From: Anaerolineae bacterium
GTDB taxonomy: Bacteria; Chloroflexota; Anaerolineae; JAAEKA01
Length of the DNA: 64,000 nucleotides
NCBI GenBank assembly: GCA_049294015.1
Contig: JBAQCH010000024.1
Location: 62,226 to 126,225, forward strand
Reading direction: 5' to 3'
Positions within the stretch are counted from its first letter, which is position 1, and each line of letters starts with the position of its first letter. Both the position numbers and the translations under genes were made by a program. This document shows, piece by piece, positions 3,093-62,200 of the stretch. Below the pieces are notes generated by a model. It was not told the DNA's origin and made no database searches. It worked only from the letters and a program-made list of their open reading frames with translations.

Positions 3093-3179
3093 TGGAGCAC
3101 CAAGGTGGAAGGGCAACAGGCACCAGACGGGCGCCTGGCGATGTTCCGGTATTCGGGCTTGGGCCTTCAGACATCTGCT

Positions 3180-3241
3180 GCACCGACGCGGTGGCGCTGG
3201 CCGCGACGATCAAGCGGAACTTCGAGGAGTTGGGGATATGA
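3180..3241 (+). pseudogene. Diverged duplicate of the hsdM 3' end (..DAVALAATIKRNFEELGI*), remnant at the cassette boundary
   Basis: Encodes AATIKRNFEELGI*, compared with the hsdM end AATIQRNFKELGV*; about 75% nt identity to 2017-2070. Its TGA overlaps the hsdS ATG (ATGA at 3238-3241). Confidence 0.6.
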
Positions 3242-7904: not shown

Positions 7905-8191
7905 CCCATAACTGCGACACCGAAGGCACCCTCGTCCAACAGACCACCACCGAGCATCTGCATCAGCACCTCGGATGGCGGGCGGTCTATGCCTACAACC
8001 GCGAGGACTTCGGAGCGGGCGGTCTGCTGGGGCGGGCATCGGACCAGGAGGTGGTACTGACGCGGCCGTTGCGTGCCAAGCTTGTCGAGCCGAACCATGA
8101 CTTGGCCGACGCGGCCTGCCAAGACCCTGCATTACGACTCAACAATGCCAAATACGGGCTTGAAACGATGAATGGAGAGATCAGCGCATGA
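7901..8191 (+). pseudogene. Remnant fusion of the hsdR 5' end (about 190 nt, ~80% identical to 12340-12530) and the hsdS 3' end (ETMNGEISA*); recombination scar between cargo 1 and cargo 2
   Basis: Encodes TEGTLVQQTTTEHLHQHLGWRAVYAYNREDFGAGGLLGRASDQEVVLTRPLRA (hsdR N-terminus is TEDTLVQQTTADYLEQQLGWRSVYAYNREDFGPDSLLGRASDREVVLTRPLRA) and ends with ..MNGEISA* (hsdS ends ..MNGEISV*). The 24-nt atgaatggagagatcagcg(t/c)atga is shared by 4336-4359 and 8167-8190. Confidence 0.6.
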
Positions 8192-10293
8192 AAGCCACCG
8201 AAGCCAACTTGCTGGATTTCCTTAAGAAGTCACCTCAGTTTGTAATCCCGATCTACCAACGCACGTATAGCTGGACCGAGCGCGAATGCCGCCAGCTTTG
8301 GGATGACATCCTGCGCACCGGCAGCAACGACGCCATCGCCGCCCATTTTGTCGGTTCTATCGTCTACATCGAGAAGGGTCTATATCAGGTCACAAGCCAG
8401 TCGCCGCTGTTGGTGATCGACGGCCAGCAACGACTGACGACCGTCATGTTGATCCTGGAAGTGCTGGCGCGCCACGTGGGAAACAGCGAGCCGGTCGATG
8501 GTTTCTCGGCCAGGAAACTCCGCAGCTACTACCTGCTTAACCCGCTGGAGGACGGTGAACGGCACTTCAAGCTGCTGCTTACGCAGACTGATAAGCAAAG
8601 TCTCCTGGCGATGGTGCAGCAGAAGCCTCAGCCCGTCGAGCCGTCGCTGCGCATCGCGGACAACTTCGCCTTCTTCGAAGAGCAGATCAAGGCCCTCGGG
8701 AAGAACCTGACACCGCTGTGCAAAGGGTTGGCAAAGCTCGTGATCGTCGACATCTCACTGAGCCGGGATCAGGACAACCCGCAGCTCATATTTGAGAGTA
8801 TGAACTCGACTGGCCGTGAGTTGAGCCAGGCCGACCTGATTCGCAATTTCATTTTGATGGGGCTGGAGCCAGCCCAACAGACGCAGCTTTACGAAGATCA
8901 CTGGCGGCCGATGGAGGTTGACTTCGGCCAGGAGGCCTACGGCACCCAGTTCGACAGCTTCATGCGTCATTACCTGACTTTGAAGACTGGCGATATCCCC
9001 AATGTCCGTGCCGTTTACGAGGCGTTCAAGTCTCACGCCCGCTCTCCAGAAGTTGTGGCAGCAGGCATCGAGGCCTTGGTTGAAGACATCCATCGCTATG
9101 CTGGCTACTATTGTGCGATGGCTTTGGACAAGGAATCCAGCAAGGAGTTGGCAGAAGCCTTCCGGGATCTGCGCGAGATGAAGGTCGATGTGGCGTATCC
9201 ATTCCTTCTGGAACTGTACCACGACTTTGCCGAGGGGGTGTTGCCTGAAGCCGATTTCCTCCAGGCCGTGCGGTTGGTGGAGGCTTACGTGTTCCGCCGG
9301 GCCGTGTGCGCAATTCCTACCAACTCTCTCAACAAGACCTTCGCCACGTTCAGACGCGCCCTCAAGAAAGAGCGCTACATTGAGAGTATCCAGGCGCATT
9401 TCCTCACATTGCCGTCCTATCGCCGTTTCCCCAACGATGAGGAGTTCAAGCGCGAGTTGTCCATTCGTGATCTCTACAATTTTCCCCGTCGTAGCTATTG
9501 GCTGCGACGCCTGGAGAATTTTGACCGGAAGGAGCGAGTGTCGGTGGGTGAATACACCATCGAACACATTCTTCCCCAGAACGAGAACCTTTCCGTCGCA
9601 TGGCGTCAGTCGCTCGGTCCAGAGTGGCGACGTATACAAGAAACCTGGCTGCACACACTGGGGAATCTCACATTGACGGGCTACAATGCCGAGTACAGCG
9701 ATCGACCGTTCCAGGAAAAACGAGATATGCCGGGCGGGTTCAAAGAGAGCCCACTGCGGCTCAATCAAGGACTTGGTGCACTGGACGCGTGGAACGAAGC
9801 TGCCATTCAGGCACGGGCGAAGCATCTTGCCGAAAAGGCCGTCAAGGTATGGGCAGCGCCCGCCCTATCGGACGCCGTGCTCGAGACCTACCAGTCAAAG
9901 GCCGAAAAGTCTGTTGGCTATAGCATCTCCGACCATCCACATGTGGCTGAAGGCGGGACCATGCAGGCCCTGTTTGAGCAACTCCGCAAGGAGATCCTGG
10001 CGCTGGACCCTTGCGTTTCCGAGGAGATTCTCAAGCTCTACATCGCCTACAAAGCTGAGACCAACTTCGTGGACATCGTGCCACAGAAGAGTCGCCTCCG
10101 CCTCTCTCTCAACATGCACTTTCACGAGTTGAACGACCCCAGGGAGATGGCCAAAGATGTGACCAATCTGGGCCGCTGGGGAAATGGCGACGTGGAGGTC
10201 GGCCTGAATCAACCGGAGGACATACCCTATGTCATGGGTTTGTTGCGTCAGGCCTTTGAGAAACAGATGGGCAACGGGATAGAGACGGAATGA
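8188..10293 (+). CDS. GmrSD-family fused DUF262 (ParB/Srx-like NTPase) plus DUF1524 (His-Me/HNH-like nuclease) protein; likely type IV modification-dependent restriction enzyme or BrxU/SspE-like effector
   Basis: N-terminal DUF262 hallmarks IPIYQRTYSWTERECRQLWDD and VIDGQQRLTT. C-terminal DUF1524-like region with EYTIEHILPQN. ATG overlaps the upstream remnant stop (ATGA). Confidence 0.85.
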   Translation: MKATEANLLDFLKKSPQFVIPIYQRTYSWTERECRQLWDDILRTGSNDAIAAHFVGSIVYIEKGLYQVTSQSPLLVIDGQQRLTTVMLILEVLARHVGNSEPVDGFSARKLRSYYLLNPLEDGERHFKLLLTQTDKQSLLAMVQQKPQPVEPSLRIADNFAFFEEQIKALGKNLTPLCKGLAKLVIVDISLSRDQDNPQLIFESMNSTGRELSQADLIRNFILMGLEPAQQTQLYEDHWRPMEVDFGQEAYGTQFDSFMRHYLTLKTGDIPNVRAVYEAFKSHARSPEVVAAGIEALVEDIHRYAGYYCAMALDKESSKELAEAFRDLREMKVDVAYPFLLELYHDFAEGVLPEADFLQAVRLVEAYVFRRAVCAIPTNSLNKTFATFRRALKKERYIESIQAHFLTLPSYRRFPNDEEFKRELSIRDLYNFPRRSYWLRRLENFDRKERVSVGEYTIEHILPQNENLSVAWRQSLGPEWRRIQETWLHTLGNLTLTGYNAEYSDRPFQEKRDMPGGFKESPLRLNQGLGALDAWNEAAIQARAKHLAEKAVKVWAAPALSDAVLETYQSKAEKSVGYSISDHPHVAEGGTMQALFEQLRKEILALDPCVSEEILKLYIAYKAETNFVDIVPQKSRLRLSLNMHFHELNDPREMAKDVTNLGRWGNGDVEVGLNQPEDIPYVMGLLRQAFEKQMGNGIETE

Positions 10294-10391
10294 GTTTCAC
10301 CGAAGACACCCTCGTCCAACAGACCACCGCCGACTACCTCGAACAGCAGCTCGGCTGGCGCTCGGTCTACGCCTGTAACGATGGAGAATAA
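10290..10391 (+). pseudogene. Near-identical duplicate of the hsdR 5' end (about 85 nt, ~97% identical to 12343-12428) ending in a degenerate junction (..VYACNDGE*)
   Basis: ttcaccgaagacaccctcgtccaacagaccaccgccgactacct.gaacagcagctcggctggcgctcggtctacgcct is shared with the hsdR start. ATG overlaps the GmrSD stop (ATGA at 10290-10293). Confidence 0.6.
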
Positions 10392-12033
10392 CAGCATGAG
10401 CATTGAAGGTCAGGATTGGGACCGCAAGTCGCTACGCTTCGTCGAAGGACGTTCCGCCAACTGGGACGAAGTCGCCAAAGACTGTGTGGCCTTTGCCAAT
10501 GCGCAGGGCGGCGGGTTGTTGATCGGTATCGAGGATGATGCATGGGCGCCGCCGGCGGGTCAGCGTATTGCGGACGAACTGATCGAACGTGTGCGCCGCC
10601 GGATCGGCGAGCTGACTGTGAATGTCACCTGCGCGGTGCAGCGAGAATTGTCCGCTGAAACCGGCGGCGAATTTCTGCGGGTGACTGTTTCTCGCTCTCA
10701 TGCCCCTGCATCTACCACCGATGGCCGCTACTACTTTCGCATTGCGGACGAGTCCAAACCCCTCGTGGGCGAACAAGTTCAACGCCTGCTCAACGAGCGC
10801 AACGCTCAGCCCTGGGAGACGCTGACGACTCTCAGCGTGCCGCGCGGCCAGACGGATCCGGCCAAGCTTGCGGCGTTCACTGCGGCTATTCGGGCATCCA
10901 GCCGGGTCAAGGCGTCGGTCAAGGAGAAGGGCGACGCGGAATTGCTGGATCACTACTACCTGGCCATCGATCGCCACCTGACCAACCTGGGCATTCTCTG
11001 TGTCGGACGCAGGCAGGATCGTGTTCAACTGGGCGCAGCGCCGGTGATTCAGTTCATCAAGTACGATCAGGATGATCGCAAGGTCAGCAAACTCTCCTGG
11101 GATGATCACTCTCTGACGCCGATGGAACTGGTGGAGGCAGTGTGGCGGGAGGTTCCGGATTTCCGCGAGACCTATGAACTGCCGGACGGCCTGTTTCGAC
11201 AATACCTGCCGGCCTATGACCAGCGGGTGGTACGGGAACTACTCGTCAACGCGTTGGTGCATCGACCATACACCCAACGGGGCGACATCTATCTGAATCT
11301 TTACCCGGATCGATTGCAGGTCGTCAATCCAGGATTACTACCTTTGGGTGTCACTCCTCAGACCATCCTGCACCAATCGGTGCGGCGAAACGATGAGATG
11401 GCGCGCGTGTTTCACGATCTGGGGCTGATGGAGCGTGAGGGCAGCGGGTATGATCTGCTTTACGAGGTCTTGACTTCGCAGGGACGAAAGCTGCCAGAAG
11501 TTCGTGAGGGAAGTGATCGGGTCGAAGTGGTCGTTTACCGGCGCGTAATCAAGCCCGTGGTGATTGATTTCCTGTCCAAGGCGGACGCTGCGTACCACCT
11601 AACGCAACGTGAACGAATAGCGCTGGGAATTCTGGTTCAATACGATGCTCTGACGATGCGAGAGCTAGCCAATCTCCTGGAGTTGCAGGACACATCGTCT
11701 GTGAATTTCTGGATCGAGAGGCTTCTGGAATGGAGAATTGTTAAGCAGGTTGGAAAAACAAGCGGGACCCGCTATTTTGTCGATCCCGATCTACTGGACA
11801 GGATGAACTTTCCAAGTAAGACAACCCTTGCTCGTATTGAGACTCATCGACTCCGTGCCCTGATTTTGGAGGATTTGCGAAGACATCCAGGTTCTTCCAC
11901 AAGTAAGATGCGTGAGCGCATTGGAGATGAGATCCCTATGCAACAAATTCGCAGGCAGCTCGCCATTCTGACAAAGGAAGGCCTAGTAGTGTTTCGAGGA
12001 GATAAACGCTGGCGTCGGTACTGGCCGACATGA
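10381..12033 (+). CDS. Schlafen-like AlbA_2 (divergent AAA) domain protein with HATPase_c_4-like middle region and C-terminal winged-helix; ATP-binding putative DNA-binding regulator or defence protein
   Basis: N-terminal AlbA_2 signature E..K.LRFVE...W.EVAKDCVAFANAQGGGLLIGIEDD. Middle RELLVNALVHRPY...GDIYLNLYPDRLQVVNPG matches the HATPase_c_4/RecG-C-like motif. C-terminal region is wHTH-like. 3' third is AT-richer. Confidence 0.75.
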   Translation: MENNSMSIEGQDWDRKSLRFVEGRSANWDEVAKDCVAFANAQGGGLLIGIEDDAWAPPAGQRIADELIERVRRRIGELTVNVTCAVQRELSAETGGEFLRVTVSRSHAPASTTDGRYYFRIADESKPLVGEQVQRLLNERNAQPWETLTTLSVPRGQTDPAKLAAFTAAIRASSRVKASVKEKGDAELLDHYYLAIDRHLTNLGILCVGRRQDRVQLGAAPVIQFIKYDQDDRKVSKLSWDDHSLTPMELVEAVWREVPDFRETYELPDGLFRQYLPAYDQRVVRELLVNALVHRPYTQRGDIYLNLYPDRLQVVNPGLLPLGVTPQTILHQSVRRNDEMARVFHDLGLMEREGSGYDLLYEVLTSQGRKLPEVREGSDRVEVVVYRRVIKPVVIDFLSKADAAYHLTQRERIALGILVQYDALTMRELANLLELQDTSSVNFWIERLLEWRIVKQVGKTSGTRYFVDPDLLDRMNFPSKTTLARIETHRLRALILEDLRRHPGSSTSKMRERIGDEIPMQQIRRQLAILTKEGLVVFRGDKRWRRYWPT

Positions 12034-12333
12034 TGTTCTATCGAACAAAAAGCACTGAATTCAATGCAAAAATGCTAACACTGTTACTTAAATGAGATTG
12101 TTGACTTCCGTAGCGCGATACATTGCTGATGCATTGCTTGTTTCGATTTCTATATATTGTATTCAATAAGTTATCTGATACTATATGTAGTGATTGTCAA
12201 AGACAAGTAAAGCCTAGAATCCCGATTCTCGCTGAAAATTCTATCTAACAAATCCTGTTGAGTTTTCGTGAATTGTCAATTAGCTGTTCGTTAGGCAGAC
12301 GTTTACAAGTGCGCAACATATGAGAAATGACCG
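12034..12333 (+). promoter_or_regulatory. 300-bp strongly AT-rich intergenic island directly upstream of hsdR; candidate promoter region (for example TTGTAT-16-TACTAT at 12157-12184) and probable 3' edge of the last inserted cassette
   Basis: AT-rich sequence (for example ctatatattgtattcaataagttatctgatactatatgtagtgattgtcaaag) contrasts with the GC-rich flanks. The promoter hexamers are a weak call because the AT richness produces many matches. Confidence 0.35.
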
Positions 12334-15300
12334 ATGAAGGCTGATCGATTCACCGAAGACACCCTCGTCCAACAGACCACCGCCGACTACCTGGAACAGC
12401 AGCTCGGCTGGCGCTCGGTCTACGCCTACAACCGCGAGGACTTCGGGCCGGACAGCCTGCTGGGCCGGGCGTCGGACCGGGAGGTGGTGCTGACGCGGCC
12501 GCTGCGCGCCGCGCTGGCCGCGCTCAACCCGGACCTGCCCGCCGCGGCCTACGACGACGCCGTGCGCCAGCTCGTCAGCGTGACAGCCACCCAGTCGCTG
12601 CTGGCAACGAACCGCGAGAAGTATACCCTGATCCGCGATGGCGTGCCGGTCAGTTTCCGCAACGCCAGGGGCGAGCTGGAGCGGCGCCGGCTGCGGGTGA
12701 TCGACTTCGCCGACCCGGCCGCCAACGACTTCCTCTGCGTGCGCGAGCTGTGGGTGCGGGGCGACCTCTACCGGCGGCGGGCCGACATCGTGGGCTTCGT
12801 CAACGGCCTGCCCCTGCTCTTCATGGAGCTGAAGAACGTCAGCCGGGACATCCGCGCCGCCTACGAACGCAACTTCAAGGACTACCTGGATACCGTGCCC
12901 CACCTGTTCCACCACAACGCGGTGGTGGTGCTGGCCAACGGCGTGGACGCCAAGCTCGGCTCGCTGACCAGTCGCTTCGAGCACTTCCACGAGTGGAAGC
13001 GGCTGGACGAGGACGAGCCGGGCGTGGTGGACATGGAAACCCTGCTCAAGGGCATCTGCCAGCCGGCCAACTTCCTGGACCTGGTGGAGAACTTCATCCT
13101 CTTCGACGACTCGGCCGGCGAGCCGAGGAAGATACTGGCCCGCAACCACCAGTTCCTGGGCGTCAACCGCGCCATCCGGGCTGTGGAGGAGCGCCGCCAG
13201 CGCCAGGGCAAGCTGGGCGTCTTCTGGCACACCCAAGGCGCGGGCAAGAGCTACTCCATGGTCTTCTTCACGCGCAAGGTGCATCGCAAGCTGGGCGGCA
13301 ACTTTACCTTCCTGGTGCTCACCGACCGGGAGGACCTGGACACGCAGATCTACAAAACCTTTGCCGGCTGCGGCGTGGTGGACAACGACCGCGATCCCTG
13401 CCGGGCGGCCGGCGGCCAGCATCTGAACCAACTGCTGACCCTGCACAAGGCGTACATCTTCTCGCTGATCCAGAAGTTCAACCGCGACGTGGAGCCGGAT
13501 CAGCCCTACAGCGAGCGGGAGGACATCATTGTCATCAGCGACGAGGCCCACCGCAGCCAGTACGGCAGCCTGGCGCTGAACCTGCGCAACGCGCTGCCCA
13601 ACGCCAGCTCGATCGGCTTCACCGGCACGCCCCTCTTCAAGAATGACGAGATCACCCGCCGCGTCTTCGGCGACTACGTTTCCACCTACGACTTCCAGCG
13701 CGCGGTGGCGGACAAGGCCACTGTGCCCCTTTACTACGACGCGCGCGGCGACAAGCTGGGCGTGGTTACCGACGACCTGAACGAGCGCATCGCCGAGAAG
13801 CTGGAGGAGATGGAAAACTCCCTTCTCCCCACGGGAGAAGGGCCGGGGATGAGGGGATTCGACATCGACGTCGCCCAGCGGCTGGAGCGCGAGCTGGAGC
13901 GGGACTATCACGTCATCACCGCCGGTAAGCGGCTGGATCAGATCGCCCAGGACTTCGTCGAGCACTATTCAACCTCTTGGGAGACCGGCAAGGCGATGCT
14001 GGTCTGCATCGACAAGGTGACCTGCGTGCGCATGCACAAGCTGGTCGGGTTCTACTGGGATCAGCGCATCAAGGCGCTGGAGCGAGCAGCGCCCGCGGCG
14101 ACCGACGAGCAGGACGAGCAATATCGCCGTCGCCAGATCGAATGGATGCGCGCGACCCGCATGGCTGTGGTGATCAGCGAGGAGCAGGGCGAGGTGGCTA
14201 GATTCCAGCAGTGGGGATTGGACATCACGCCCCATCGCCGCCTCCTCAAGGAGGGCATGGACCTGCCGGAGGCCATGCGCCAGCAGCCCCAGTACCGCGC
14301 CATGCAGCGCCTGGCCCTGGACGATGCCTTCAAGGCCGAGCAGCACCCCTTCCGCATCGCCATCGTCTGCGCCATGTGGCTGACCGGCTTCGACGTGCCC
14401 AGCCTGGCGACGCTCTACCTGGACAAGCCACTCAAGGCCCACACCCTGATGCAGGCCATCGCGCGCGCCAACCGGGTCAACGAGGGCAAGAACAACGGCC
14501 TCCTCGTGGACTACTGCGGCATCCTCAAGAACCTGCGCCAGGCCCTGGCCACCTTTGCCGGCGCAGGGGATGGCGGCCGCGACGGCGACGGCGGCGAGAT
14601 CGACCCGGCCCGCCCTGAGCAGGAGCTGCTGGCCGATCTGGCTGAGGCCGTCGCGCTGGTGCAGGCGTTTTTGGCCGAACGGGGAGCGTCGCTGGATGCC
14701 ATCATCAGCCAGGCAGGCTTCGCCCGCAACGCGGCCATCCTGGCGGCCAAGGAAGCGGCCAACCAGAACGACGCGACGCGCAAGCGCTTCGAGGTCATGT
14801 GCCGGGCGGTGTTCAGCAAGTTCAAGGCTTGTCTGACCCTGGCCGGCGTCAACGCCCACCGGCGCGACAAGAGCGCCATCGACATCGTCTACCAGAGCCT
14901 GCAAGCCGACCGCGCGCAGGCCGACATCAGCGCCATCACGCAGGAATTGCACGAGATCGTCGACCAGGCCATCGCGGTGTGGCGCAGCCCGACAGCCGCT
15001 GACCGGGCGCCGTACGACATCAGCCAGATCGATTTCGAGCGCCTGCGACGGGAGTTCGAACGCAGCCCCGCCCAACGCACCACTGTGCAGAATCTCAAGA
15101 CTGCCATCGAGCGCCGCCTCCAGCGCCTGCTGGCGCAGAACCCCCTGCGAGCTGACTTGCAGCGGCGCTACGAGGAGATCGTGGCCGACTACAACCGCGA
15201 GAAGGACCGCCTGACCATCGAGCAGACCTTTGAGGAATTGCTGCGCTTCGTGCAAGCCATGGACGAGGAGGAGACGCGCGCCGCACGCGAGGGATTGACC

Positions 15301-16374: not shown

Positions 16375-18543
16375 CTACCCCAGCACCATACGCACGTCCA
16401 CGGCCAGCGCACCCTGGCTGGCCGGATAGGCGAGCAATGGATTGACGTCGATTTCTTGAACTTCAGGGTGATCGAGGGCCAGGCAGGCCACGCGCTCGAT
16501 GACCTCAGCCACGGCATCGATGTCGGCCGGCGCCTGGCCGCGCAGACCCGCCAACAGCTTGCCGGCGTGCGTCTCGCCGATCATGGCCAGCGTCTCGGCC
16601 CGGCTGAAGGGCGCGACGCGGAAGGCCACGTCCTTGAGCAGCTCGACGTAGATGCCGCCCAACCCAAACATCAGCAGCGGGCCGAACTGCGGGTCGCGGC
16701 GCATCCCCACGATCAGCTCATGGCCGGGCAGCGCCATCTGCGTTACCAACACGCCTTCGATGCGAGCGTCGGACTGCCGCTCTTGGACGCGCGCCAGCAT
16801 GGCCGTGTACGCGGCCTGCACCGCCGCCTGGTCCGCCAGCTTGAGCGCGATGCCGCCCACCTCCGATTTGTGGAAGATGTCAGGCGAGACGATCTTCAAC
16901 GCCACGGGAAAGCCGATTTCCACCGCCAGCCGGCCGGCCTCATCGGCTGACCGCGCCAGCTCTGCCCGCGGCTGGGCAATGCCGTAGGCCGCCAGGATCG
17001 GCCGCGCCTCGGCCTCGCCAAGCTGAGCGGGACCAGGGGGAAGGGTGATCGGTGAACGGTGACCCTGGCTCGCCGGTTCTGAGGATAGGCGAGCGGTGAG
17101 CGGTGAGCGGTGAGCGGAGTCGGCTACCAATTTCCCAGTTTCCCAATTTCCCAATCTACCTCGTACCTCTGCATAGCGCCACAGCGCACCCAGCGCCCGC
17201 GCGGCCTGCTCCGGAAAGATGTAGCTGGCAATTTGGTGCTGGTGCAGCACGGCCATGGGCTGGCGCACTACCTCGTCGCCCATGAAACAGGCGACGACGG
17301 GCTTGTTTCTTTCAGATCCCGCCGCCCGCGCGATGGCCTCGGCCACGGCCACCGGATCGACCAGCGCTTGCGGCACCAGGATCGGCAGCACGGCGTCGAA
17401 GGCGTCGCTGGCCAGCAAGGCGGCCACGGCCTGCTCGTACTGCGCCGGCTCGGCCCCGCCCAGCATGTCCACCGGGTTGGCCAGTTGCGCCTCAGGATGG
17501 GTGAAGCCGGCCAACACCGCCTGCACAGATGCGGGCGTCGGCGGCATGAGCAGCCCCACTTGCTCGATGACATCGGCCGCCAGGCTGGCCGGCCCGCCCG
17601 CGTTGGTCACCACCGCCACCCGCGGCCCCCTCGGCAGCGGCCCGTAGGCCAGCGCCAGCGCGTGGTCGAACAGGTCCTCGACGGTGTCCACGCGCAGCAC
17701 GCCGGCCTGCTGGAAGGCCGCGTCGTAGGCCGCCATCTCGCCGGCCAGGCTGCCGGTGTGTGAAGAGACGGCGCGCGTGCCGGCCACCGTGCGGCCAGCC
17801 TTGATCACCAGGACCGGCTTGTGGGGGGTAATCTGCCGCGCCGCGTCGATGAAGCGCCGGCCGTCGCGGATGGCCTCGATGTAGGCCACGATCACCCGCG
17901 TGTTGGGGTCGTCGGCCAGGTCGAGCAGCAGGTCGGTCTCGCTGACGTCGGCGGCGTTGCCCAAGGTGGCGAAGCGGCTGAAGCCGATGCCCTTGCCGGC
18001 CGTCCATTCCAGGATGCCGCCGCAGATCGCGCCCGACTGGCTGACGAAGGCGATGGGGCCGGGCCGGGGCATGGTGCGGATGAAGGTGGTGTTGAGGCCG
18101 CTGTGCGCGTCCAACGTGCCGACGCAGTTGGGGCCGATCAGGCGCATGTTGTACTGGCCTGCAATGTGCAGCAGCGCTTGCTCCAGCGCCAGCCCCTCTG
18201 CGCCCACCTCGCGAAAGCCGCCGGAGATGATGATGGCCGCCTTGAGGCCGCGCCGGCCGCACGCTTCCAATACGCCCGGACAGGCTGCGGCCGGCGTCAT
18301 CAGCACGGCCAGCTCTACGGGGTCAGGCACGGCCTCGATGTCGGGATAGCAGGGCAGGCCCAGGATCTCGTGCGCGCGCGGGTTGACCGGATAGACTGCG
18401 CCCGTGAAGCCGTAGGTGAGACAGTTGCGCAGCACGCCGTGGCTGAGCTTGCGCGGGTCGGCTGACGCGCCGATGACGGCCACGCCGCTGGGGTTGAAGA
18501 AGGAGATAAGTGATGAGTGGGGCGCGGAGTTGGACATGCGCAA
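16375..18543 (-). CDS. Acetate--CoA ligase (ADP-forming) / NDP-forming acyl-CoA synthetase, fused alpha (CoA-binding plus ligase-CoA) and beta (ATP-grasp) domains
   Basis: N-terminal CoA-binding FFNPSGVAVIGASADPRK..GFTGAVYPVNP; C-terminal ATP-grasp start LGEAEARPILAAYGI. The inter-domain linker is encoded by a repeat element (see 17040-17170). Confidence 0.8.
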   Translation of the reverse strand: MRMSNSAPHSSLISFFNPSGVAVIGASADPRKLSHGVLRNCLTYGFTGAVYPVNPRAHEILGLPCYPDIEAVPDPVELAVLMTPAAACPGVLEACGRRGLKAAIIISGGFREVGAEGLALEQALLHIAGQYNMRLIGPNCVGTLDAHSGLNTTFIRTMPRPGPIAFVSQSGAICGGILEWTAGKGIGFSRFATLGNAADVSETDLLLDLADDPNTRVIVAYIEAIRDGRRFIDAARQITPHKPVLVIKAGRTVAGTRAVSSHTGSLAGEMAAYDAAFQQAGVLRVDTVEDLFDHALALAYGPLPRGPRVAVVTNAGGPASLAADVIEQVGLLMPPTPASVQAVLAGFTHPEAQLANPVDMLGGAEPAQYEQAVAALLASDAFDAVLPILVPQALVDPVAVAEAIARAAGSERNKPVVACFMGDEVVRQPMAVLHQHQIASYIFPEQAARALGALWRYAEVRGRLGNWETGKLVADSAHRSPLTARLSSEPASQGHRSPITLPPGPAQLGEAEARPILAAYGIAQPRAELARSADEAGRLAVEIGFPVALKIVSPDIFHKSEVGGIALKLADQAAVQAAYTAMLARVQERQSDARIEGVLVTQMALPGHELIVGMRRDPQFGPLLMFGLGGIYVELLKDVAFRVAPFSRAETLAMIGETHAGKLLAGLRGQAPADIDAVAEVIERVACLALDHPEVQEIDVNPLLAYPASQGALAVDVRMVLG
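17040..17170 (-). repeat. Heptamer/octamer tandem-repeat palindromic element (GGTGAGC x3, TTTCCCAA x3, CAATCTACC) lying in-frame inside the acetyl-CoA synthetase gene, where it encodes the inter-domain linker
   Basis: gagcggtgagcggtgagcggtgagcgg ... ttcccagtttcccaatttcccaatctacc; translated on the minus strand as GRLGNWETGKLVADSAHRSPLTARLSSEPASQGHRSPITLPPGP between the alpha-like and beta-like domains. Confidence 0.55.
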
Positions 18544-20814: not shown

Positions 20815-20900
20815 TCCGTAGCATGTAGCACGTAACACGTAACACGTAACTCGGAACCCGGAATGCACTCCGCATACACGCTCTGGGTTACGGATTACGC
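20815..20900 (+). repeat. GTAAC-type palindromic heptamer-repeat element (gtaacacgtaacacgtaactcgg...ccgg...gggttacggattacgc)
   Basis: Intergenic, between the Rieske gene and sufU; same family as 22996-23068 and 36793-36880. Confidence 0.55.
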
Positions 20901-25456: not shown

Positions 25457-25570
25457 GGGAAGGAAACAGGTAGACAAGTAAACAAGTAGACAAGGGGCAG
25501 GTTGCAGATTTCGCTCGCTTCCTTGTCTTCCCATTCCGCCCCTTGTTTCCTTGTCTACCTGTCTACTTGT
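25457..25570 (+). repeat. GTAGACAAG-type palindromic heptamer-repeat element (caggtagacaagtaaacaagtagacaagg ... ccttgtctacctgtctacttgtctac)
   Basis: Long inverted repeat between sufD and sufB; related element at 38395-38528. Confidence 0.55.
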
Positions 25571-26986
25571 CTACCCAATACTGCCTTCCATCTGCAACTG
25601 GATCAGGCGGTTCATCTCGACGGCGTATTCCATCGGCAGCTCTTTGACCATTGGCTCGATGAAGCCGCTGACGATCATCGTCGCCGCCTCTTCCTCGCCC
25701 AGGCCGCGGCTCATCAGGTAGAAGATCTGCTCTTCATTGACCTTGCTGACGCTGGCCTCGTGGCCCACCTGCACGTCCTGCTCGTCGATCTCGATGTAGG
25801 GGTAGGTGTCAGAGCGGCTGTGGTCGTCCAGCAGCAGCGCATCGCACACTACCGTCGACTTGGAGCCGCTTGCGCCCTTGGCTACCTTGAGCAGGCCGCG
25901 GTAGGAAGCGCGGCCGCCGTTCTTGCTGATCGACTTGGAGATGATCTTGGAGGAGGTGTTGGGCGCGCCATGCACCACCTTGCCGCCCGCGTCCAGCGTC
26001 TGTCCGTGGCCGGCGAAGGCGATGGAGAGGATCTCGCCGTGGGCTCGCGGTCCCATCATGTAGACCGCCGGGTACTTCATCGTCACCTTCGAACCTAGAT
26101 TCGCGTCGATCCACTCCATGGTGGCGCCGGCCTCGGCGATGGCGCGCTTGGTGACCAGGTTGTAGACGTTGTTGGACCAGTTCTGGATCGTGCTGTAGCG
26201 GCAGCGGCCGCCTTCCTTGACGATGATCTCCACCACGGCGCTGTGCAGCGAATCCGAGGCGTAGATCGGCGCGGTGCAGCCTTCGACGTAGTGGACGCTG
26301 GCGCCCTCTTCGACGATGATCAGCGTGCGCTCGAACTGGCCCATGTTCTGGGCGTTGATGCGGAAGTACGCCTGCAAGGGGATATCCACGTGGACGCCCT
26401 TGGGCACGTAGACGTAGCTGCCGCCCGACCAGACAGCCGAATTCAGGGCAGCGAACTTGTTGTCTGACGGCGGGATGACGGAGCCAAAGTACTCCTTGAA
26501 GACATCCTCGTGCTCGCGCAGGCCGCTGTCGGTATCCAGGAAGATCACGCCCAGCTTGGTCCACTGCTCTTGCAGCGAATGATAGACCACCTCGGACTCG
26601 TACTGTGCGCCGACGCCGGCCAGGAAGCTGCGTTCGGCCTCGGGGATGCCCAGGCGGTCGAAGGTGTCCTTGATGCTATCCGGGATGTCGTCCCAGCTCT
26701 TGCCCTGCTTCTCGGTGGGCCTGAGGTAGTAGTAGATGTTGTCGAAGTCGATCTCGCTCAGGTCGGCGCCCCAGGTGGGCATCGGCTTCGACAGGAAGAT
26801 GTCCAGGGACCGATGGCGGAACTCGCGCATCCAGTCGGCCTCGTTCTTCATGTCGCACATCTGATCGATGACCTCGTGACTCAGACCCCGCTTCGATTTG
26901 AAAACGAACTCTTCCGGCTTGCTGAAGCCATATTGATACTCATCTTTTACGCCCGCAAGGGCTTCGCGGTCACTGGTAGTAGCCAT
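25571..26986 (-). CDS. sufB: Fe-S cluster assembly protein SufB
   Basis: 471 aa, [12 protein letters not shown]...; highly conserved SufB sequence throughout. Confidence 0.9.
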
Positions 26987-26994
26987 ACTGTTCT

Positions 26995-27177
26995 CCAGTT
27001 CGTACTCGGTAGTGGTAAATTGGTAGATTGGTGGATTGGTCGGTTGGCAGGGTTGGCGGGGTTGGCAGAGAGGTAGATTGGCAGAGTAGTCAAAGCAATC
27101 AGAAAAGCTGCATTTTGACTGACCCAACATGCCTCCGGCGTACCAATTTACCAATCTACCAATCTACCAGTTCCTTG
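26995..27177 (+). repeat. GGTAGATTGG / CCAATCTACC-type palindromic heptamer-repeat element
   Basis: ggtagattggtggattggtcggttggcagggttggcggggttggcagagaggtagattgg ... ccaatttaccaatctaccaatctacc; intergenic between sufB and sufC. Confidence 0.55.
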
Positions 27178-36792: not shown

Positions 36793-36880
36793 GTGTAACA
36801 CGTAACACGTAACCCGTAACCCGGAGAGTCTGCGCATGGCGCACATTCCGGGTTACAGGGTTACGCATTACGAGTTACAG
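36793..36880 (+). repeat. GTAAC-type palindromic element (gtaacacgtaacacgtaacccgtaacccgg ... ccgggttacagggttacgcattacgagttac)
   Basis: Intergenic between the PPIase and carboxypeptidase genes. Confidence 0.55.
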
Positions 36881-38394: not shown

Positions 38395-38528
38395 TCCTCA
38401 GGGTTGAGGTAGACAGGTAAACAAGCAGACAAGAAGACAAGGCCGGAACCTGTCCACCTCACCAATCTACCAATCTACCAATCTACCAATTACTTGTCTA
38501 CCAATCTACCAATTACTTGCCTACCTGT
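38395..38528 (+). repeat. Composite palindromic heptamer-repeat element (GTAGACA and CCAATCTACC units)
   Basis: gaggtagacaggtaaacaagcagacaagaagacaagg ... ccaatctaccaatctaccaatctaccaattacttgtctacc ... cctacctgtctacttgtctacttgtctacc. Confidence 0.55.
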
Positions 38529-39221
38529 CTACTTGTCTACTTGTCTACCTGCCTTCACCGTCCGCCGCGTCTGCCGCACAATGCGCACCCAGTTGCGCAT
38601 GTGCGTCCAGGGGTCGATGTGGCTGCCCTGGTCGCCGTAGATGGTGCGGATGGGCACCCCGTCCAGCACGTAGCCGCGCTGCACGCAGGTGACGATCATC
38701 TCGACCTCGAACTCGAAGCCGTGCTCCTGGCTGTCCAGCACGGCCTCGGCCATGCGCCGGCTGAGCAGCCGATAGCCCGACTGGTTGTCCTCGACCCGCT
38801 GGCCCAGCGCCCAGGAGAAGCTCCAGCGGCCCAGGGTGTTGGCCGCGCGGCGGCTCAGCGGCATCTGGCTGAAGTCGCGGCAACCGATCAGCAGGTCGGC
38901 GTGGGTTACAGCCTGCCGCGCCAGAAAGGCCGGAATCTCGGCCGGGTCGTGCTGGCCGTCGGCATCCAGCGTCAGCACAGAGTCATGGCCGTGGGCCAGC
39001 GCCCAACGCAGGCCGGCCCGCAGCGCCGCGCCCTTGCCCTGGTTGGGAATCTGGCGCAGCACCGTCGCGCCGGCAGCCTCGGCCAGCGCGGCCGTGTCGT
39101 CGCGCGAGCCGTCGTCCACCACCAGCGCTGGCAAGTGCTTGAGCGTGGCCGCGATCACCGGCGCGATGCGCTGCGCCTCGTTGTAGGCGGGGATCAGCGC
39201 CAACGGGTTGCAGTGCTCCAT
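38529..39221 (-). CDS. Family 2 glycosyltransferase (dolichol-phosphate mannosyltransferase-like)
   Basis: ..LIPAYNEAQRI...VVDDGSRDDT...LDADGQHDP.. Confidence 0.8.
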   Translation of the reverse strand: MEHCNPLALIPAYNEAQRIAPVIAATLKHLPALVVDDGSRDDTAALAEAAGATVLRQIPNQGKGAALRAGLRWALAHGHDSVLTLDADGQHDPAEIPAFLARQAVTHADLLIGCRDFSQMPLSRRAANTLGRWSFSWALGQRVEDNQSGYRLLSRRMAEAVLDSQEHGFEFEVEMIVTCVQRGYVLDGVPIRTIYGDQGSHIDPWTHMRNWVRIVRQTRRTVKAGRQVDK

Positions 39222-39602: not shown

Positions 39603-42346
<2,744 letters not shown>

Positions 42347-42350
<4 letters not shown>

Positions 42351-42589
42351 GCGGGTACTAATTCCAGCGCATGGACACCCTCTTCTGCTAGCCAGGCAGC
42401 ATACTGCAATGCCTGGCTAATATCCTGTGGCTCCAAGTAAGGGTAATCCTCGATGATTTGCTGTACTGTCATCCCACTGGCAACAAGGTTGACGATCAGC
42501 GAGACCGTAATGCGCATACCGCGGATACATGCCCTGCCACCCATCACCTGCGGATCGAATGTGATTCTGTTGAATCCAAACATGCTCAA
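42347..42589 (-). CDS. DUF433-domain protein (putative antitoxin-like)
   Basis: ..GGRACIRGMRITVSLIV...QIIEDYPYLEPQDI.. DUF433 signature. Confidence 0.65.
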
Positions 42590-42742
42590 CTCCTGTCTTT
42601 CACCCGGAACTTCAAGTCGGTTGCTAGCTAGACTGCGCTAATCGGGTAGCACACATTGTAACACAGTTCTCCAAATGCACCATCTGGAAGGTTCGCGCTC
42701 GCCAGGCGGGTCTCCGAACCGAGCCAACCTAAGATTCGATTG

Positions 42743-43234
42743 CTAAACGCTTCCTAACAGCCACTGCGCCAACGAACGAATTTCGATGGTCATACCATCC
42801 TGTTGGATTGGCTCGGCATTGACCTCGGTCAGAATCAGCCCGCGTTCGAGTCCCAAAGCGCTCATGCCATCGCGTAGTACGCGTATTTTCCGCTCTCGAA
42901 CGCCGCTTTGATCAAGGTTCTGAGCAACCTGGACCAGCATGCGCTGCTCAGGCAGGTAGAAATCGACTTCGAAGCCACCAGGCGTTGTGTAATAGAAGAT
43001 CTCTTGCGTTTGGCGCCGCAACGCCAGGAAGATCACGTTTTAGAGTAAGCGCCCGCTGTTGGGCGAGAACGCGTGGGGCAGGGGCGCTGCGCGCGTTAGC
43101 TGCGCCAACTGATCGCGTGGAATGCCCGTGTCACGCTCCCAGAATCCCTGGGCCTGCTCCAGCAGCATGGCGCGAATCTGGTCTCTCGACCATCTGTTTC
43201 GCCAATAGTTTTCATTCATAATGAAATGATACAC
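42743..43234 (-). pseudogene. Truncated AAA+ ATPase of the DUF4143 family (N- and C-terminal fragments in the same frame, separated by a stop; ATPase core missing)
   Basis: The C-terminal fragment ..EIFYYTTPGGFEVDFYL.. matches the DUF4143 C-terminal motif; the total length of about 160 aa compares with roughly 400 aa expected. Confidence 0.45.
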
Positions 43235-43274
43235 CTAAATGATTTCATTGACAATGAAATCATTTAGGTGTATC
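43228..43274 (+). repeat. 47-bp perfect AT-rich palindrome (23-bp arms gatacacctaaatgatttcattg / caatgaaatcatttaggtgtatc, 1-nt centre)
   Basis: Read directly from the sequence; overlaps the stop of the permease gene and the start of the truncated ATPase. Confidence 0.8.
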
Positions 43275-57225: not shown

Positions 57226-57968
57226 GGAACGAGACGAGAAGTAGCCTGGCGCGTTCCCGTTTGATTGCGCCGATGATCGCCTTGCTCTTGATTCTCTGCG
57301 GCGCGCTGCTGCTGGGTGGAGCGATCGTACGGCCACGTCTAGCCGCAGCAGCCGAGCGACTGCTGCGCCTGAGCGCCTGGTTCGCCGACCCCGCGGCCAA
57401 CCCGGAGTGGACGGTGCTGGCCGGCGTGCGCTGCCAGCCCGACGCGCCCATGCTGCTGCCCACGGCCGGCTACATCGGCTTCGGTTGGGACGACAGCTTC
57501 CGCCCCGGCCACCGCCACAGCGGCTACGACATCTTCAGCCCCGAACGAGCGGTCAACGTCACCCCGGTGATCGCGGCCCACGACGGCTACCTGACACGTG
57601 AGCCAGGCTGGCGCAGCGCAGTGATCATCCGCCACCCCGACTTCCCCGCCATCGTCCCCGGCGAGCAGATCTGGACCTACTACACCCACATGGCCTCGGC
57701 CGACGGCAGCCAGTCCTTCATCGCGCCGCAGTTCCCGGCCGGCTCACGCGAGCTATTCGTGCCGGCCGGCACGCTGCTGGGCTACCAGGGCAACTGGTCC
57801 GGCAACGTCGCCAGCCCCACCGGCATCCACCTGCACTTCTCCGTCGTCAAGTCCACTTCCGGGGGCAGCTACGCCGACGAGACCGACATCAGCAACACCT
57901 ACGATCCAGGTCCCTTTCTGGGCGTCACGCGCAACGCGGCCGGCGTGCTGGTCTGCGGCGCAGAATGA
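57222..57968 (+). CDS. M23-family metallopeptidase with N-terminal TM/signal
   Basis: HxxxD (HRHSGYDIF) and HxH (IHLHFSV) motifs. Confidence 0.75.
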   Translation: MRNETRSSLARSRLIAPMIALLLILCGALLLGGAIVRPRLAAAAERLLRLSAWFADPAANPEWTVLAGVRCQPDAPMLLPTAGYIGFGWDDSFRPGHRHSGYDIFSPERAVNVTPVIAAHDGYLTREPGWRSAVIIRHPDFPAIVPGEQIWTYYTHMASADGSQSFIAPQFPAGSRELFVPAGTLLGYQGNWSGNVASPTGIHLHFSVVKSTSGGSYADETDISNTYDPGPFLGVTRNAAGVLVCGAE

Positions 57969-57974
57969 TCCCTC

Positions 57975-58045
57975 GCCAATCGTCGCGTAGGTCCGGCTAC
58001 CAGCCGGACAGCACGCCTGTCACGTTGATAACGTGACCTACGCGC
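57975..58045 (+). repeat. REP-unit copy (ggtccggctaccagccggac + GTCACGTTGATAACGTGAC palindrome) on the 3' side of the RAYT gene
   Basis: Same unit as the array at 58590-59160. Confidence 0.65.
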
Positions 58046-58562
58046 AACAGTCTTCGCCAAACCCAATCAACGATTCGGGCAGGTTCCAACCCCACTCGTC
58101 AGGATAGACGCCTCTTGTCTTCCACTGCAGAAAGCTGCTGTGTTGCCAGTCTTCCGGCTTATTGACATAGCCATGCTTGACCGGGTTGTAGTGGATGTAG
58201 TGCAAATGGTTGGCGAAATCATCTTCGTCCCGGATGATGTGATCCCAATAGCGCTTCTGCCAAAACTTCATCGATCCTTGCACACCAATGGTTGTTTTGT
58301 ACGCCTTGGTGAAGTTTGGCTTGATCGAGTGCATGATTTGGGTGTTGGTGACACCATGCATCGGCTTGAACAACAGGTGAAAATGGTCGGGAAGGAAGAC
58401 GAAAGCCAGCATCGCGAAAGGATACAACCGCTGCGCTTCGTGTATGATCTCACGCAGAAGATCGAGGTGTTGGATGTTTCGAAACACAGGAACGCGTCCC
58501 TCAACTACTTGGGTGATGAAGACAATCGAGTCGGGTACGTAATAGCGGCGTATGTTGGTCAT
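58038..58562 (-). CDS. REP-associated tyrosine transposase (RAYT; IS200/IS605 TnpA-like HuH enzyme)
   Basis: HuH motif DHFHLLF, catalytic Tyr region ..RYWDHIIRDEDDFANHLHYIHYNPVKHG..; flanked on both sides by REP palindromes; start refined to MTNIRRYY. Confidence 0.8.
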   Translation of the reverse strand: MTNIRRYYVPDSIVFITQVVEGRVPVFRNIQHLDLLREIIHEAQRLYPFAMLAFVFLPDHFHLLFKPMHGVTNTQIMHSIKPNFTKAYKTTIGVQGSMKFWQKRYWDHIIRDEDDFANHLHYIHYNPVKHGYVNKPEDWQHSSFLQWKTRGVYPDEWGWNLPESLIGFGEDCCA

Positions 58563-58589
58563 TGGTATCCCTCCTTGGAAAACGTGTTG

Positions 58590-59160
58590 CGAACGCATGT
58601 CACGTTGATAACGTGACCTACGCCACATCCTTGGTAGGTCCGGCTACCAGCCGGACAGAGCGCCCGTCACGTTGATAACGTGACCTACGCGCATCGTTGG
58701 TAGGTCCGGCTACCAGCCGGACAGAGCGCCCGTCACGTTGATAACGTGACCTACGCCGCATCGTTGCGCAGGTCCGGCTACCAGCCGGACAGAGCGCCCG
58801 TCACGTTGATAACGTGACCTACGCGCATCGTTGGTAGGTCCGGCTACCAGCCGGACGGCACGCCTGTCACGTTGGTAACGTGACCTACGCCGCATCGTCG
58901 CGTAGGTCCGGCTACCAGCCGGACAGCACGCCTGTCACGTTGGTAACGTGACCTACGCCGCATCGTCGCGTAGGTCCGGCTACCAGCCGGACAGCACGCA
59001 TGTCACGTTGATAACGTGACCTACGCGCATTGTTGATAGGTCCGGCTATCAGCCAGACAGCACGCATGTCACGTTGATAACGTGACCTACGCGCATTGTT
59101 GGTAGGTCCGGCTACCAGCCGGACAGCACGCCTGTCACGTTGCTAACGTGACTACTGCTG
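58590..59160 (+). repeat. Tandem array of about 9 REP units of roughly 66 bp; each unit has palindrome GTCACGTT-GAT-AACGTGAC and a second hairpin TCCGGCT-ACC-AGCCGGA (REPIN/BIME-like)
   Basis: Directly visible periodicity of about 66 bp; units differ by a few substitutions (gataacg/ggtaacg/gctaacg). Confidence 0.85.
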
Positions 59161-59204
59161 ATTTTAGCATGAGTGTGCCATGACGACAAGGGCGCAAAAG
59201 CATC

Positions 59205-59245
59205 CACCCTCTTCCCGCCTGGTTGGAGGAAAGAGGGTGGATCAG
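59205..59245 (-). terminator. Rho-independent terminator of the NHL-repeat gene (stem atccaccctctt / aagagggtggat, then T-run on the minus strand)
   Basis: Minus-strand read: stem-loop followed by gcttttgcg. Confidence 0.55.
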
Positions 59246-59297
59246 ACCAAACTGCCGAGCGATACGGCGCAGGTCACGAGGCGCCGCGGCCCGACAC

Positions 59298-62200
59298 CTA
59301 CTGCGCTGGCGTAATGCGCACGTCGTCTACGTAGCGGGTCGAGGTGGTGTTCGCATCGCCGTTCCATAGATCAAGGGACGCCGACAGGCTGGTTGCCACA
59401 GCCAGTGCAGCTGCATCGCTAGGCACATGGCTGCCGATCATGGCGCCATTCAAATAGAAGCGCAGTTGTGCCGTCGTCGGGACGATTTCTATTCGGGCGA
59501 CATGCCAGGTATTATACGGCACCGAGACGCTGGCCGTTTGATATTCCATCCTCCAACCTGTTCCCTCTGGCACCAGGATCCCGCAACTAAAGTCTGCGTT
59601 CTGGTTGCCTTGGCTCCCGTTCAGACCACATAGTGCCGTCCAGCCGTGGTTGTTCACGAACGCATGCACTTTGAGTTGGACTGATGAGTGACCACCGAGA
59701 CGATCATCGCTGATTTTCATGCGCCCTGCGATGTACCACGTTTGTTGTGGCGAGCGCGGCAGTCGTTGCCGTGTCTGAAGTTGAGCACCGCTACCCTGGG
59801 GTGAAGGAGTCGTGCTCCAGAGCACCATGGCGCCGTTCTGCTGCGCAGCGTGGAAGGGAGTGTCGCCTTCCCATGACCACAATAACGGGTTCCAGGTCCC
59901 GTCATAGGCGGGATTGTCGAAGCTGTCGTAGATATCGGTCAAGGGATCGTAGCCCTTAACCGAGATCGGCAGGAAAGTCCGATACCAGGCGTTGACGTAG
60001 GCCGGTCGGGTCAGCGTGTGGCTGTCCATGCCGTCGCCCACCGTCAGCCGCACGGTGTAAGCGCCGGCCGCTGAGTATGTGTGCGTCGGGTTGGCGGCCG
60101 TGCTGCTCTGGCCGTCGCCGAAGTCCCACTGCGTGCTGGCGACGTCGCCGGCCGAGGCGTTGCTGAAGCTGACGGCCAGCGGCGGCCGGCCGGTGAGCGG
60201 CGTGGCGCTGAAGTCAGCGGTGACGGTCTTCTGCCAGATCTGGTTGCCGACGCCATCGGTAGACGTGCCGATGAAGAGTCGGTTGCCGAACACCACCACC
60301 GAATTGCCCCAGTTAGGGCCGGTGTTGTTGCCGTTGCCGAAGCCGGCCGGGGCATCCTGCTCCCATTGCTGACCGTTGGCCGAGCGCCAGACCTGCGTGC
60401 CCTCGCCAGATCGGTTGCTGGTCAGGGCATACATGCGACCGCGCAGCACTGGCAGCGCCATGATGCGGCGATTCCAGCCATCGCCAAAGCCGCCGGTCAT
60501 CATCTGGCTCCAGTCGCTGCCGTTGCAGACCGAGCAGCGCCAGAGTTGGGCCCCTGTGGTCCAGTTGGTGGTGCCGGCATAGAGCAAGCCACCAAAGGAC
60601 GCCAACGACGCAACCCCAGCGTTGTCGATGTCGCCAAAGCCACCGGCGTTGACCAGGGTCCAGGTTGTGCCGTTGCTGCTGCGCCAGACCTGCCCGCCAG
60701 CCGGCTCATTGAACGTGCCTGCGTACAACGCACCGTTGTGTTCCTGAAAGGTCATAGCGCCTTGATTACCTGCATCGCCCAGGCCCCCGATGACGACGCG
60801 CGTCCAACTGCCTGCATTGCCCGTGCTGCTGCGCCAGATTTCGCCGCCGGTTGCAGTGTTGAGCGTGCTGGCATAGAGCTGGCCGCCGAAGACCACCATC
60901 CGGAAAATCTCCAGGTTGTCCGTATCGCCAAAGCCGCCGTCGGCCACCAGCGACCAGTTGACGCCGTTGGCGCTGCGCCAGACCTGGCCGCCCAAGGTGT
61001 AGCCGTTGTTGCAGTCTGGGTCGCAGGCGTAGTGGCCCGTGCTGGCGTAGAGCTGGCCGTTGAACTCGACCAGATGATCGATCCAGTAGTTCTCACCGCC
61101 CAGGCCGTTGGTCACCACCGCGCTCCAGTCGCCGCCGGCGTTCTGCCGCCAGATCCAGGGCGCATTGTTGTGTGCGCCGCCCGCGTACAGTCGGCCGCCG
61201 AAGGCAGTCAAGCCGCCCAGGAACGACCAGCGCTCGCCAAAGCCGGTGACGTTGACCTGCTTCCAGCCCGGCACGCCCGGGCTGAACTTCTGCACACGGT
61301 GGTTGTCTCTCTCAGCCACGTAGACATTGCCCTCTTTGTCCACCGCCACGTCCACGGCGTCGCGCAGGCCGCCGCTGCTGCTGCTATACACGCCGCCGAT
61401 GGTGGCCAGATACGCGCCAGTGGCGTCGAACACCTGCACCCGGTCGTTCCAGGGATCGGCCACGTAGACGCGGCCGGCGGCGTCGACAGCCACATCCATA
61501 GGAACGATGTGGCCGTTGTCATTGCCAAACACCCCGGTTTCGCCGGCGAAAGTCGTGCAAGCGTAGTCGTTGGCTGACAGCAGGCACTTCTGCACGCGGT
61601 AATTGCTCACGTCAGCCACGTAGACCGCGCCGCTGGCGTCCACGGCCACGCCCCGCGGCCAGCTGAAGTGACGGTTGTCGCTGCCCTGCTCGTCCAGCAC
61701 ACCTAAGGTCATGCGATAGACCCAATGGCGGGTGTAGACCTGGATGCGCTGGTTGCCGTGGTCGACCACGAAGATGTCGCCGGTGGCCGGGCTGACGGCG
61801 ATGCCAACCGGACCCTCGAACTCGTGGTTGCCGACGCCCCACGCGCCAAAGGTGGCGTGATAGCTGCCGTCGGCGTTGAAGATCTGGATACGGTTGTTGG
61901 GCGTGTCGGGCACGTAGGCGCGACCGGCCGTGTCGACGGCGATGCTGCCCTCGGGTCCGGTCCACCACTGGCCGAAGTGGGCGTTATCGTCGCCGTAGAT
62001 GCCGGCTTCGCCCACGGTCCACTGCACCGCGCCGCTGGCATCCAGCTTGAGCAGCCGGTAGCCGCGGTTTTCAGTCACGTAGACGCTGCCATCCGCGCCC
62101 ACGCCGATGCCCCAAGGACTGTTCAAGTGCTGGCCGTCGGTCACGTAAGGCACGCCGCTGACGCCGGCAAAGACGCCCATAGGGCTGCCCGTGCTGCTGA

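Follow-up and report, generated by a model that had tools for sequence, protein, structure and literature searches.

A putative REPtron in Chloroflexota: a RAYT gene within a BIME-like array of inverted REP doublets

Results

A gene for a REP-associated tyrosine transposase

The window analysed here, a stretch of DNA 64 kb long, contains one RAYT copy, a gene of 174 aa with an ATG start on the minus strand (58038..58562). A Shine–Dalgarno-like AGGAGGG, read from the sequence, lies on the same strand six bases 5′ of the ATG (58569..58575, core AGGAGG 58570–58575) and is unchanged among strains, bar one base in L005. An alternative reading of 196 aa starts at 58628 and extends into the first repeat of the adjoining array; it is probably not the true start. 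An M23-like gene, whose Pfam match is below the cut-off, converges on RAYT from the left, its stop codon ending at 57968. Upstream of RAYT and on the same strand lies a gene of 1413 aa with NHL/PKD repeats, which ends at 59298. Among the ORFs around the locus, neither a tnpB partner nor cas genes were found adjacent to it.

The preliminary description of this DNA, made from the letters alone, had placed a RAYT at 58038–58562 and proposed an alignment with the E. coli protein as a check of its catalytic residues; the placement was borne out and the check was passed. The product passed the curated NCBIfam equivalog model NF047646 (REP_Tyr_transpos) with 144.6 bits against a cut-off of 80, failed NF033573 (transpos_IS200) with 21.3 bits against a cut-off of 55, and matched Pfam Y1_Tnp (PF01797). 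It aligned with E. coli TnpAREP (PDB 4ER8) over nearly its full length (residues 1–163, E=6.9e-24). In this alignment DHFHLL pairs with E. coli EHMHCI, which gives the HuH motif as H60-F-H62, and Y122 pairs with E. coli residue 115, a position counted along the alignment; the catalytic mutant is called Y115F in PMC8266576. Across 19 aligned homologues with 56–83% identity, H60, H62 and Y122 do not vary, and neither do FWQ (100–102) and YIH-NPV-H (122–130). Judged by these sequence matches, the protein is a REP-associated tyrosine transposase (RAYT) of the HuH/Tyr type.

An autonomous transposase of the IS200/IS605 type, with the hairpins around the gene as its own ends, would equally match Pfam Y1_Tnp, and subterminal hairpins are usual in that family. 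We consider it highly improbable, given that the protein fails the IS200 model and passes the RAYT model, that a tnpB partner is missing, that the flanks consist of many copies of GTAG REPs with no distinct left and right ends, and that just one RAYT is present among the 32 REP-bearing contigs of the metagenome described below.

Two REP variants read on opposite strands

Palindrome GTCACGTTGATAACGTGAC occurs at 10 sites at ≤1 mismatch, once at 58019 and nine times at 58599–59134, and palindrome GTAGGTCCGGCTACCAGCCGGAC at nine sites, of which one is at 57987 and the other eight are in the array. Neither turned up in shuffled sequences (0 sites), which puts the repeats well outside what chance would give. 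The preliminary description had taken the second palindrome for a hairpin distinct from the first. It is indeed present, at nine sites on the plus strand, but it is not a separate feature: the two palindromes are variants of one REP type, read on opposite strands, and pair up as an inverted heterodimer. Variant A, on the minus strand, consists of GTAG, the stem GTCACGTT, the loop ATC and AACGTGAC; variant B, on the plus strand, consists of GTAG, the stem GTCCGGCT, the loop ACC and AGCCGGAC. Both are 23 nt long, with GTAG followed by a perfect 8-bp stem and a 3-nt loop, and 16 of their 23 positions agree, three stem pairs being changed on both sides in a compensatory manner.

There are 19 REPs at the RAYT locus, all of them 23-nt elements except one that is a base short, and in 16 of the 19 an intact GTAG stands directly against a perfect 8-bp stem, in keeping with GTAG-type REPs, which are palindromes of 20–40 bp with a terminal GTAG tag. 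Degenerate copies are a B at 58768, in which GCAG replaces GTAG, a B at 59036 with ATAG and two stem changes, and the last A at 59134, which has lost one base next to the tag.

The placement of the REPs is extragenic. Every copy is confined to the gaps that separate the M23-like gene, RAYT and the NHL/PKD gene, except that one overlaps the RAYT stop codon. On that side of the gene, an exact copy of REP B (57987..58009, plus strand) begins 19 bases past the stop codon of the M23-like gene and forms the outer member of a doublet 3′ of the RAYT stop; its partner, a REP A (58019..58041, minus strand), holds the RAYT stop codon TAG in its GTAG. With its stop codon in a REP tag, the gene sits within the array and not beside it. 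Four metagenome contigs of the same species, independent of one another, keep this overlap.

We scanned species-representative genomes with a degenerate pattern that covers A and B and makes no requirement for complementarity. It occurred in at least 94 stretches, almost all of them in Caldilineales/Anaerolineae MAGs among the matches listed. In 174 of the 178 matches counted over 99 loci the stem was fully complementary, where about 12.5% would be expected by chance, and the 178 matches comprised at least six stem types. Maintenance of the REP hairpin by selection is supported by this comparison. Fourteen distinct stem variants collected from relatives have an invariant GTAG and stems that vary by lineage, with double changes in seven of the eight stem pairs. 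The alignment of these variants was assembled via a hairpin finder, so that its 100% pairing is circular and only the diversity of the stems is informative.

A BIME-like array of heterodimeric doublets

RAYT is flanked on its stop side by one doublet (57987–58041) and on the other side by a tandem array of eight A(−)/B(+) doublets and a single terminal A, which repeat and motif scans placed at 58599..59156 (17 REPs, both strands). Tandem Repeats Finder reported one strong array in the window, at 58593..59152 (period 66, 8.4 copies, 92% matches, score 883). The preliminary description had given one REP unit on one side and about nine tandem units of ~66 bp on the other, in good agreement with both results. 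Within a doublet the bodies of B and A face inwards and are always 9 nt apart, and the GTAG ends of neighbouring doublets are 11–13 nt apart. The array also shows a higher-order period of 134 bp, and blocks of adjacent units have variants in common.

BIMEs are defined as REPs that are regularly spaced and alternate in orientation (PMC2817692). The array shows just this, with A(−) and B(+) in alternation and successive copies of a REP spaced 66–68 bp apart. With two REP variants on opposite strands and compensatory differences between their stems, it therefore resembles a BIME made of heterodimeric doublets; by the nomenclature of Di Nocera et al. 2013 (PMC3733652), the doublets count as head-to-head heterodimers in tandem reiteration. 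The order B(+), 9 nt, A(−) at 57987–58041, repeated through the array, is likewise the REPIN arrangement of inverted REPs with a short spacer. In the predicted single-strand fold, each unit gives a pair of distinct hairpins of 8 bp each (z about −4 to −5), the doublet may gain a basal stem of 7–8 bp via its outer GTAG/CTAC ends, and the two halves do not pair into one long hairpin. In this the doublet departs from a classical REPIN, which forms one long hairpin.

A palindromic repeat at regular spacing might also be read as a CRISPR-like array. Here, however, cas genes are not adjacent, and the 9-nt and 11–13-nt linkers are themselves repeated (92% unit identity), so that there are no unique spacers. 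We have rejected this reading, to which we give practically no credence.

We favour instead, with a probability of about 0.88, the reading of the locus as a REPtron, that is, an apparently single-copy, domesticated HuH/Y1 transposase gene (RAYT, TnpAREP) set among its presumed cognate REPs, which are arrayed in the manner of a BIME.

Transcription signals around the array

A consensus scan for promoters picked out a weak promoter-like site on the minus strand at 59161..59189, immediately upstream of the array (TTGTCG-17-TAAAAT with TG). If this site is real, the whole array would be the leader of the RAYT mRNA. The array might then act mainly as RNA, either as a structured 5′ leader that throttles RAYT or as a 3′ stabiliser or terminator for the NHL-repeat gene. 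Its position, with the RAYT start on one side and, on the other, the 59298 stop of the NHL/PKD gene, which runs in the same direction, would suit such a role, as would the presence of a promoter-like site on the RAYT strand; moreover, a 608-nt RNA is predicted to fold with −334 kcal/mol (z = −11), and it has been suggested that REP hairpins can down-regulate RAYT expression (PMC3733652). Nevertheless, we think it unlikely that this is the main role of the array. The promoter match is near chance (two sites found by the scan, 0.9 expected), the terminator scan called no intrinsic terminator in the region, and an Rfam search of 57800–59400 gave sub-threshold chance matches only. Any array of palindromes folds strongly, and the conservation of GTAG on both strands is a better fit to a signal that acts at the level of DNA.

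Just past the NHL/PKD stop, on the minus strand at 59203–59245, there is a hairpin with a 12-bp stem (ATCCACCCTCTT / AAGAGGGTGGAT) followed by TTTT. It is terminator-like, yet absent from the calls of the terminator scan.

REPs beyond the RAYT locus

The preliminary description had regarded the locus as the likely source of palindromes dispersed elsewhere in the window. This has to be withdrawn: outside the RAYT locus, the 64-kb window contains no further A or B copy at ≤3 mismatches and no other element that combines GTAG with a hairpin, and the remaining perfect hairpins in it are unrelated to the REP family.

Three lines of indirect evidence bear on dispersal, the first of them the scan of species-representative genomes described above. 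The second comes from the sister genome CAZVGR, in which synteny with the window is kept at ~84–93% nucleotide identity and at least 14 separate stretches of 8 kb hold the same A and B REPs, singly or as inverted doublets. Third, a metagenome scan with the A 23-mer led to contig L163 of metagenome Ga0209573, which is the same locus with 98.7% identity over 10.9 kb. This metagenome has 40 REP clusters on 32 contigs, with 120 A and 45 B copies, and L163 is the sole RAYT carrier among these contigs. Isolated B(+)A(−) doublets occur in L143, L150 and L166. Two other contigs, L137 and L164, show synteny to loci of CAZVGR (80–88% identity), which suggests that they come from the same species as the RAYT locus. 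The REP contigs of Ga0209573 are likely to belong to this genome, and, on the basis of the sister genome and the contigs from the same sample, genome-wide dispersal of the REPs is likely.

The window has some other repeats and compositional features. One hairpin stem, CCCTTCTCCC...GGGAGAAGGG, occurs at both 1076–1098 and 13820–13842 and is unrelated to the REPs. A perfect AT-rich palindrome at 43228–43274, with a 20-bp stem and a 7-nt loop (GATACACCTAAATGATTTCA TTGACAA TGAAATCATTTAGGTGTATC), straddles a local dip in GC (0.54 in the bin 42001–43000). Short clusters of 7–8-bp tandem repeats lie at 17040–17155, 20817–20850, 25460–25575, 27013–27169, 36795–36820 and 38421–38554, with units such as GAGCGGT, CGTAACA, GTAACAC, TACCAATC/ACCAATCT and TGGTAGAT; an octamer of the ACCAATCT type is found at three of these cluster sites, once as the reverse complement. 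Finally, GC is 50–59% in 2001–13000, against 60–71% in most of the remaining window, and this region may be a foreign island.

RAYT homologues and turnover of their neighbourhood

A search for RAYT homologues gave 884 matches, and those that were named came mostly from Anaerolineales, Caldilinea, Litorilinea or Chloroflexota. Each of the eight homologous RAYTs examined (11 loci, 59–85% identity) is flanked by 8-bp hairpins that have a GTAG tag and a loop of 3 or 4 nt. At five of the eight, two stem variants alternate in tandem arrays, the largest being those of L104, with 11 doublets, and L106, with more than 20 REPs. The preliminary description had called the arrangement of gene and repeats canonical for RAYTs, a view that sits well with GTAG palindromes on both sides of the gene, here and at all eight homologues.

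In one case, Litorilinea aerophila (VIGC02000035.1; L109:89–6591), a homologue with 59% identity and REP arrays on both sides sits between a cas10/csm1-like gene and csm2 of a type III-A CRISPR-Cas operon.

The neighbours of the homologues in L100 (85% identity) and L101 (78% identity) have no similarity to the neighbours of RAYT in the window, and since they are unrelated, synteny adds no functional clue. In CAZVGR, L079:1100–4600 (CAZVGR010000028.1) is syntenic with window 57810–59899 at ~90% identity. There, the slot that separates the M23-like gene from the NHL gene has neither RAYT nor array; it is occupied by a gene for a 772-aa LRR protein and bounded by REPs at the same two borders as in the window. 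The replacement of RAYT by the LRR gene suggests that REP-bounded slots are sites of gene turnover, or else that the REPtron has moved. In close lineages the REPtron thus stands in differing genomic contexts; the absence of RAYT from the CAZVGR slot and the unrelated neighbours of the homologues fit less well with the picture of a strictly vertical, immobile RAYT.

Local expansion of REP arrays

The array of L163 has 11 A copies compared with nine in the window, with two extra units in the RAYT-proximal half, which is a copy-number polymorphism unless it is an assembly artefact. Five short contigs encode a protein (P0001) that differs from the RAYT of the window in its last two residues only, and all five end inside the array. 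In Ga0209573 the architecture met most often has (A)n and then a single inverted B, the head-to-tail period being 26–46 bp. Head-to-tail arrays of A alone, capped by one inverted B, are found at L138:1455–1780, L159:4084–4410, L137:8121–8434 and L131:5649–6077, and the corresponding array at L164:115–258 is capped by an A; head-to-tail arrangement of REPs is described as rare in other genomes (PMC3733652). At two orthologous sites, L137 and L164 have 5–8 REPs, as against one or two in CAZVGR (L015/L048). Together with the extra units of L163, these counts indicate that arrays expand locally.

This expansion could be that of a passive satellite, in which doublets were seeded once and then multiplied by slippage or unequal recombination of 66–134-bp units, without catalysis by RAYT. 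Such an account concerns the origin of the array alone, not the identity of the gene. The 134-bp higher-order period, with its blocks of neighbouring units that have variants in common, is consistent with it, as are both differences in copy number described above and the amount of flanking spacer per unit, which differs between arrays. However, the copy number of L163 comes from a metagenome assembly, with the reservation already made, and arrays adjoin five of the eight RAYT homologues examined. Moreover, the units of the L137 and L138 arrays are bounded at or beside a GTAG that is part of the inverted B REP's loop, and this would also fit enzyme-mediated joining. We regard a purely passive origin as a real possibility, if somewhat less than an even one, and the GTAG junctions of L137 and L138 as compatible both with slippage or recombination and with enzyme action.

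Given these junctions, cleavage and strand transfer by RAYT at GTAG, or copying primed there by a 3′-OH, would fit as a candidate route of local amplification. More broadly, RAYTs of Caldilineae/Anaerolineae may amplify REP doublets in place besides scattering them, the array adjacent to RAYT being the most active site; we offer this as a speculation and hold it to be doubtful.

Discussion

If the REPtron works as its better studied counterparts do, each REP would fold into a hairpin in single-stranded DNA, for example on the lagging-strand template, as proposed by analogy with E. coli and Stenotrophomonas. RAYT would bind the folded hairpin together with its 5′ GTAG, as in E. coli, Stenotrophomonas and Marinomonas, and the tag would be used in recognition or in the choice of the cleavage site (PMC8266576). 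In S. maltophilia, GTAG is needed for cleavage of the REP, which is cut at CT (PMC8266576). By the same analogy, RAYT would cut at a nearby CT dinucleotide through Tyr122, the HuH histidines holding the metal, and would rejoin the strands, whereby REP doublets may be disseminated or rearranged. The inverted B/A doublet seems to be the basic unit of dispersal, and arrays would then lengthen and shorten locally through duplication of whole units.

The locus provides a clean example of a REPtron from uncultured filamentous Chloroflexota (Caldilineae/Anaerolineae). The type of system is already defined, and REPtrons, REP homo- and heterodimers and tandemly reiterated clusters have all been described (PMC3733652); the only mildly unusual trait is the tendency of this lineage to amplify REPs into head-to-tail arrays. 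Because these arrays break short-read assemblies and vary in copy number between near-identical strains, they matter for the contiguity of MAGs and could be used as strain markers.

Comparison with known systems

In the literature searched, we found no paper on REPs in Anaerolineae/Caldilineae, and the only REPs of Chloroflexota found to be described so far were the clustered GTAG-23 elements of Thermomicrobium roseum. T. roseum is a member of the Chloroflexota, in a different class of the phylum. Its clustered GTAG REPs make up the GTAG-23 family (PMC3733652); the REPs described here are also dispersed as singletons and doublets.

The TnpA proteins of IS200/IS605 elements belong to the same HuH/Y1 fold family (PF01797). 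The RAYT described here differs from them in failing the IS200 model, in having neither IS ends nor tnpB, and in being apparently single copy. The REPIN/RAYT system of P. fluorescens is similar in that inverted REP doublets flank its single-copy RAYT and are also spread through the genome (PMC3337134, PMC5581495). In our case, however, each half of the doublet is a stem variant of its own, the fold predicted for the single strand has two short hairpins on a short common stem, and many loci are tandem arrays, not single doublets.

With E. coli TnpAREP (YafM, 4ER8) the locus shares a homologous protein, with aligned HuH and catalytic Tyr residues, and REPs with a 5′ GTAG. It also resembles E. 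coli BIMEs in having two REP variants that alternate in orientation at regular spacing; in those BIMEs it is the Y and Z REPs that alternate. Unlike the E. coli REP stem, in which a bulge is required (PMC8266576), the stems here are perfect. The hosts differ as well, Enterobacteriaceae in the one case and Chloroflexota in the other, and here the array abuts the gene, with the stop codon in a REP tag.

The REPtron Sm of S. maltophilia (group 3 TnpAREP) has stem and loop sequences unrelated to those described here, but its REPs are of the same geometry, 23 nt with GTAG, a perfect 8-bp palindrome and a 3-nt loop (PMC8266576). The design of the REPs at this locus is therefore one that has been studied biochemically, in Stenotrophomonas.
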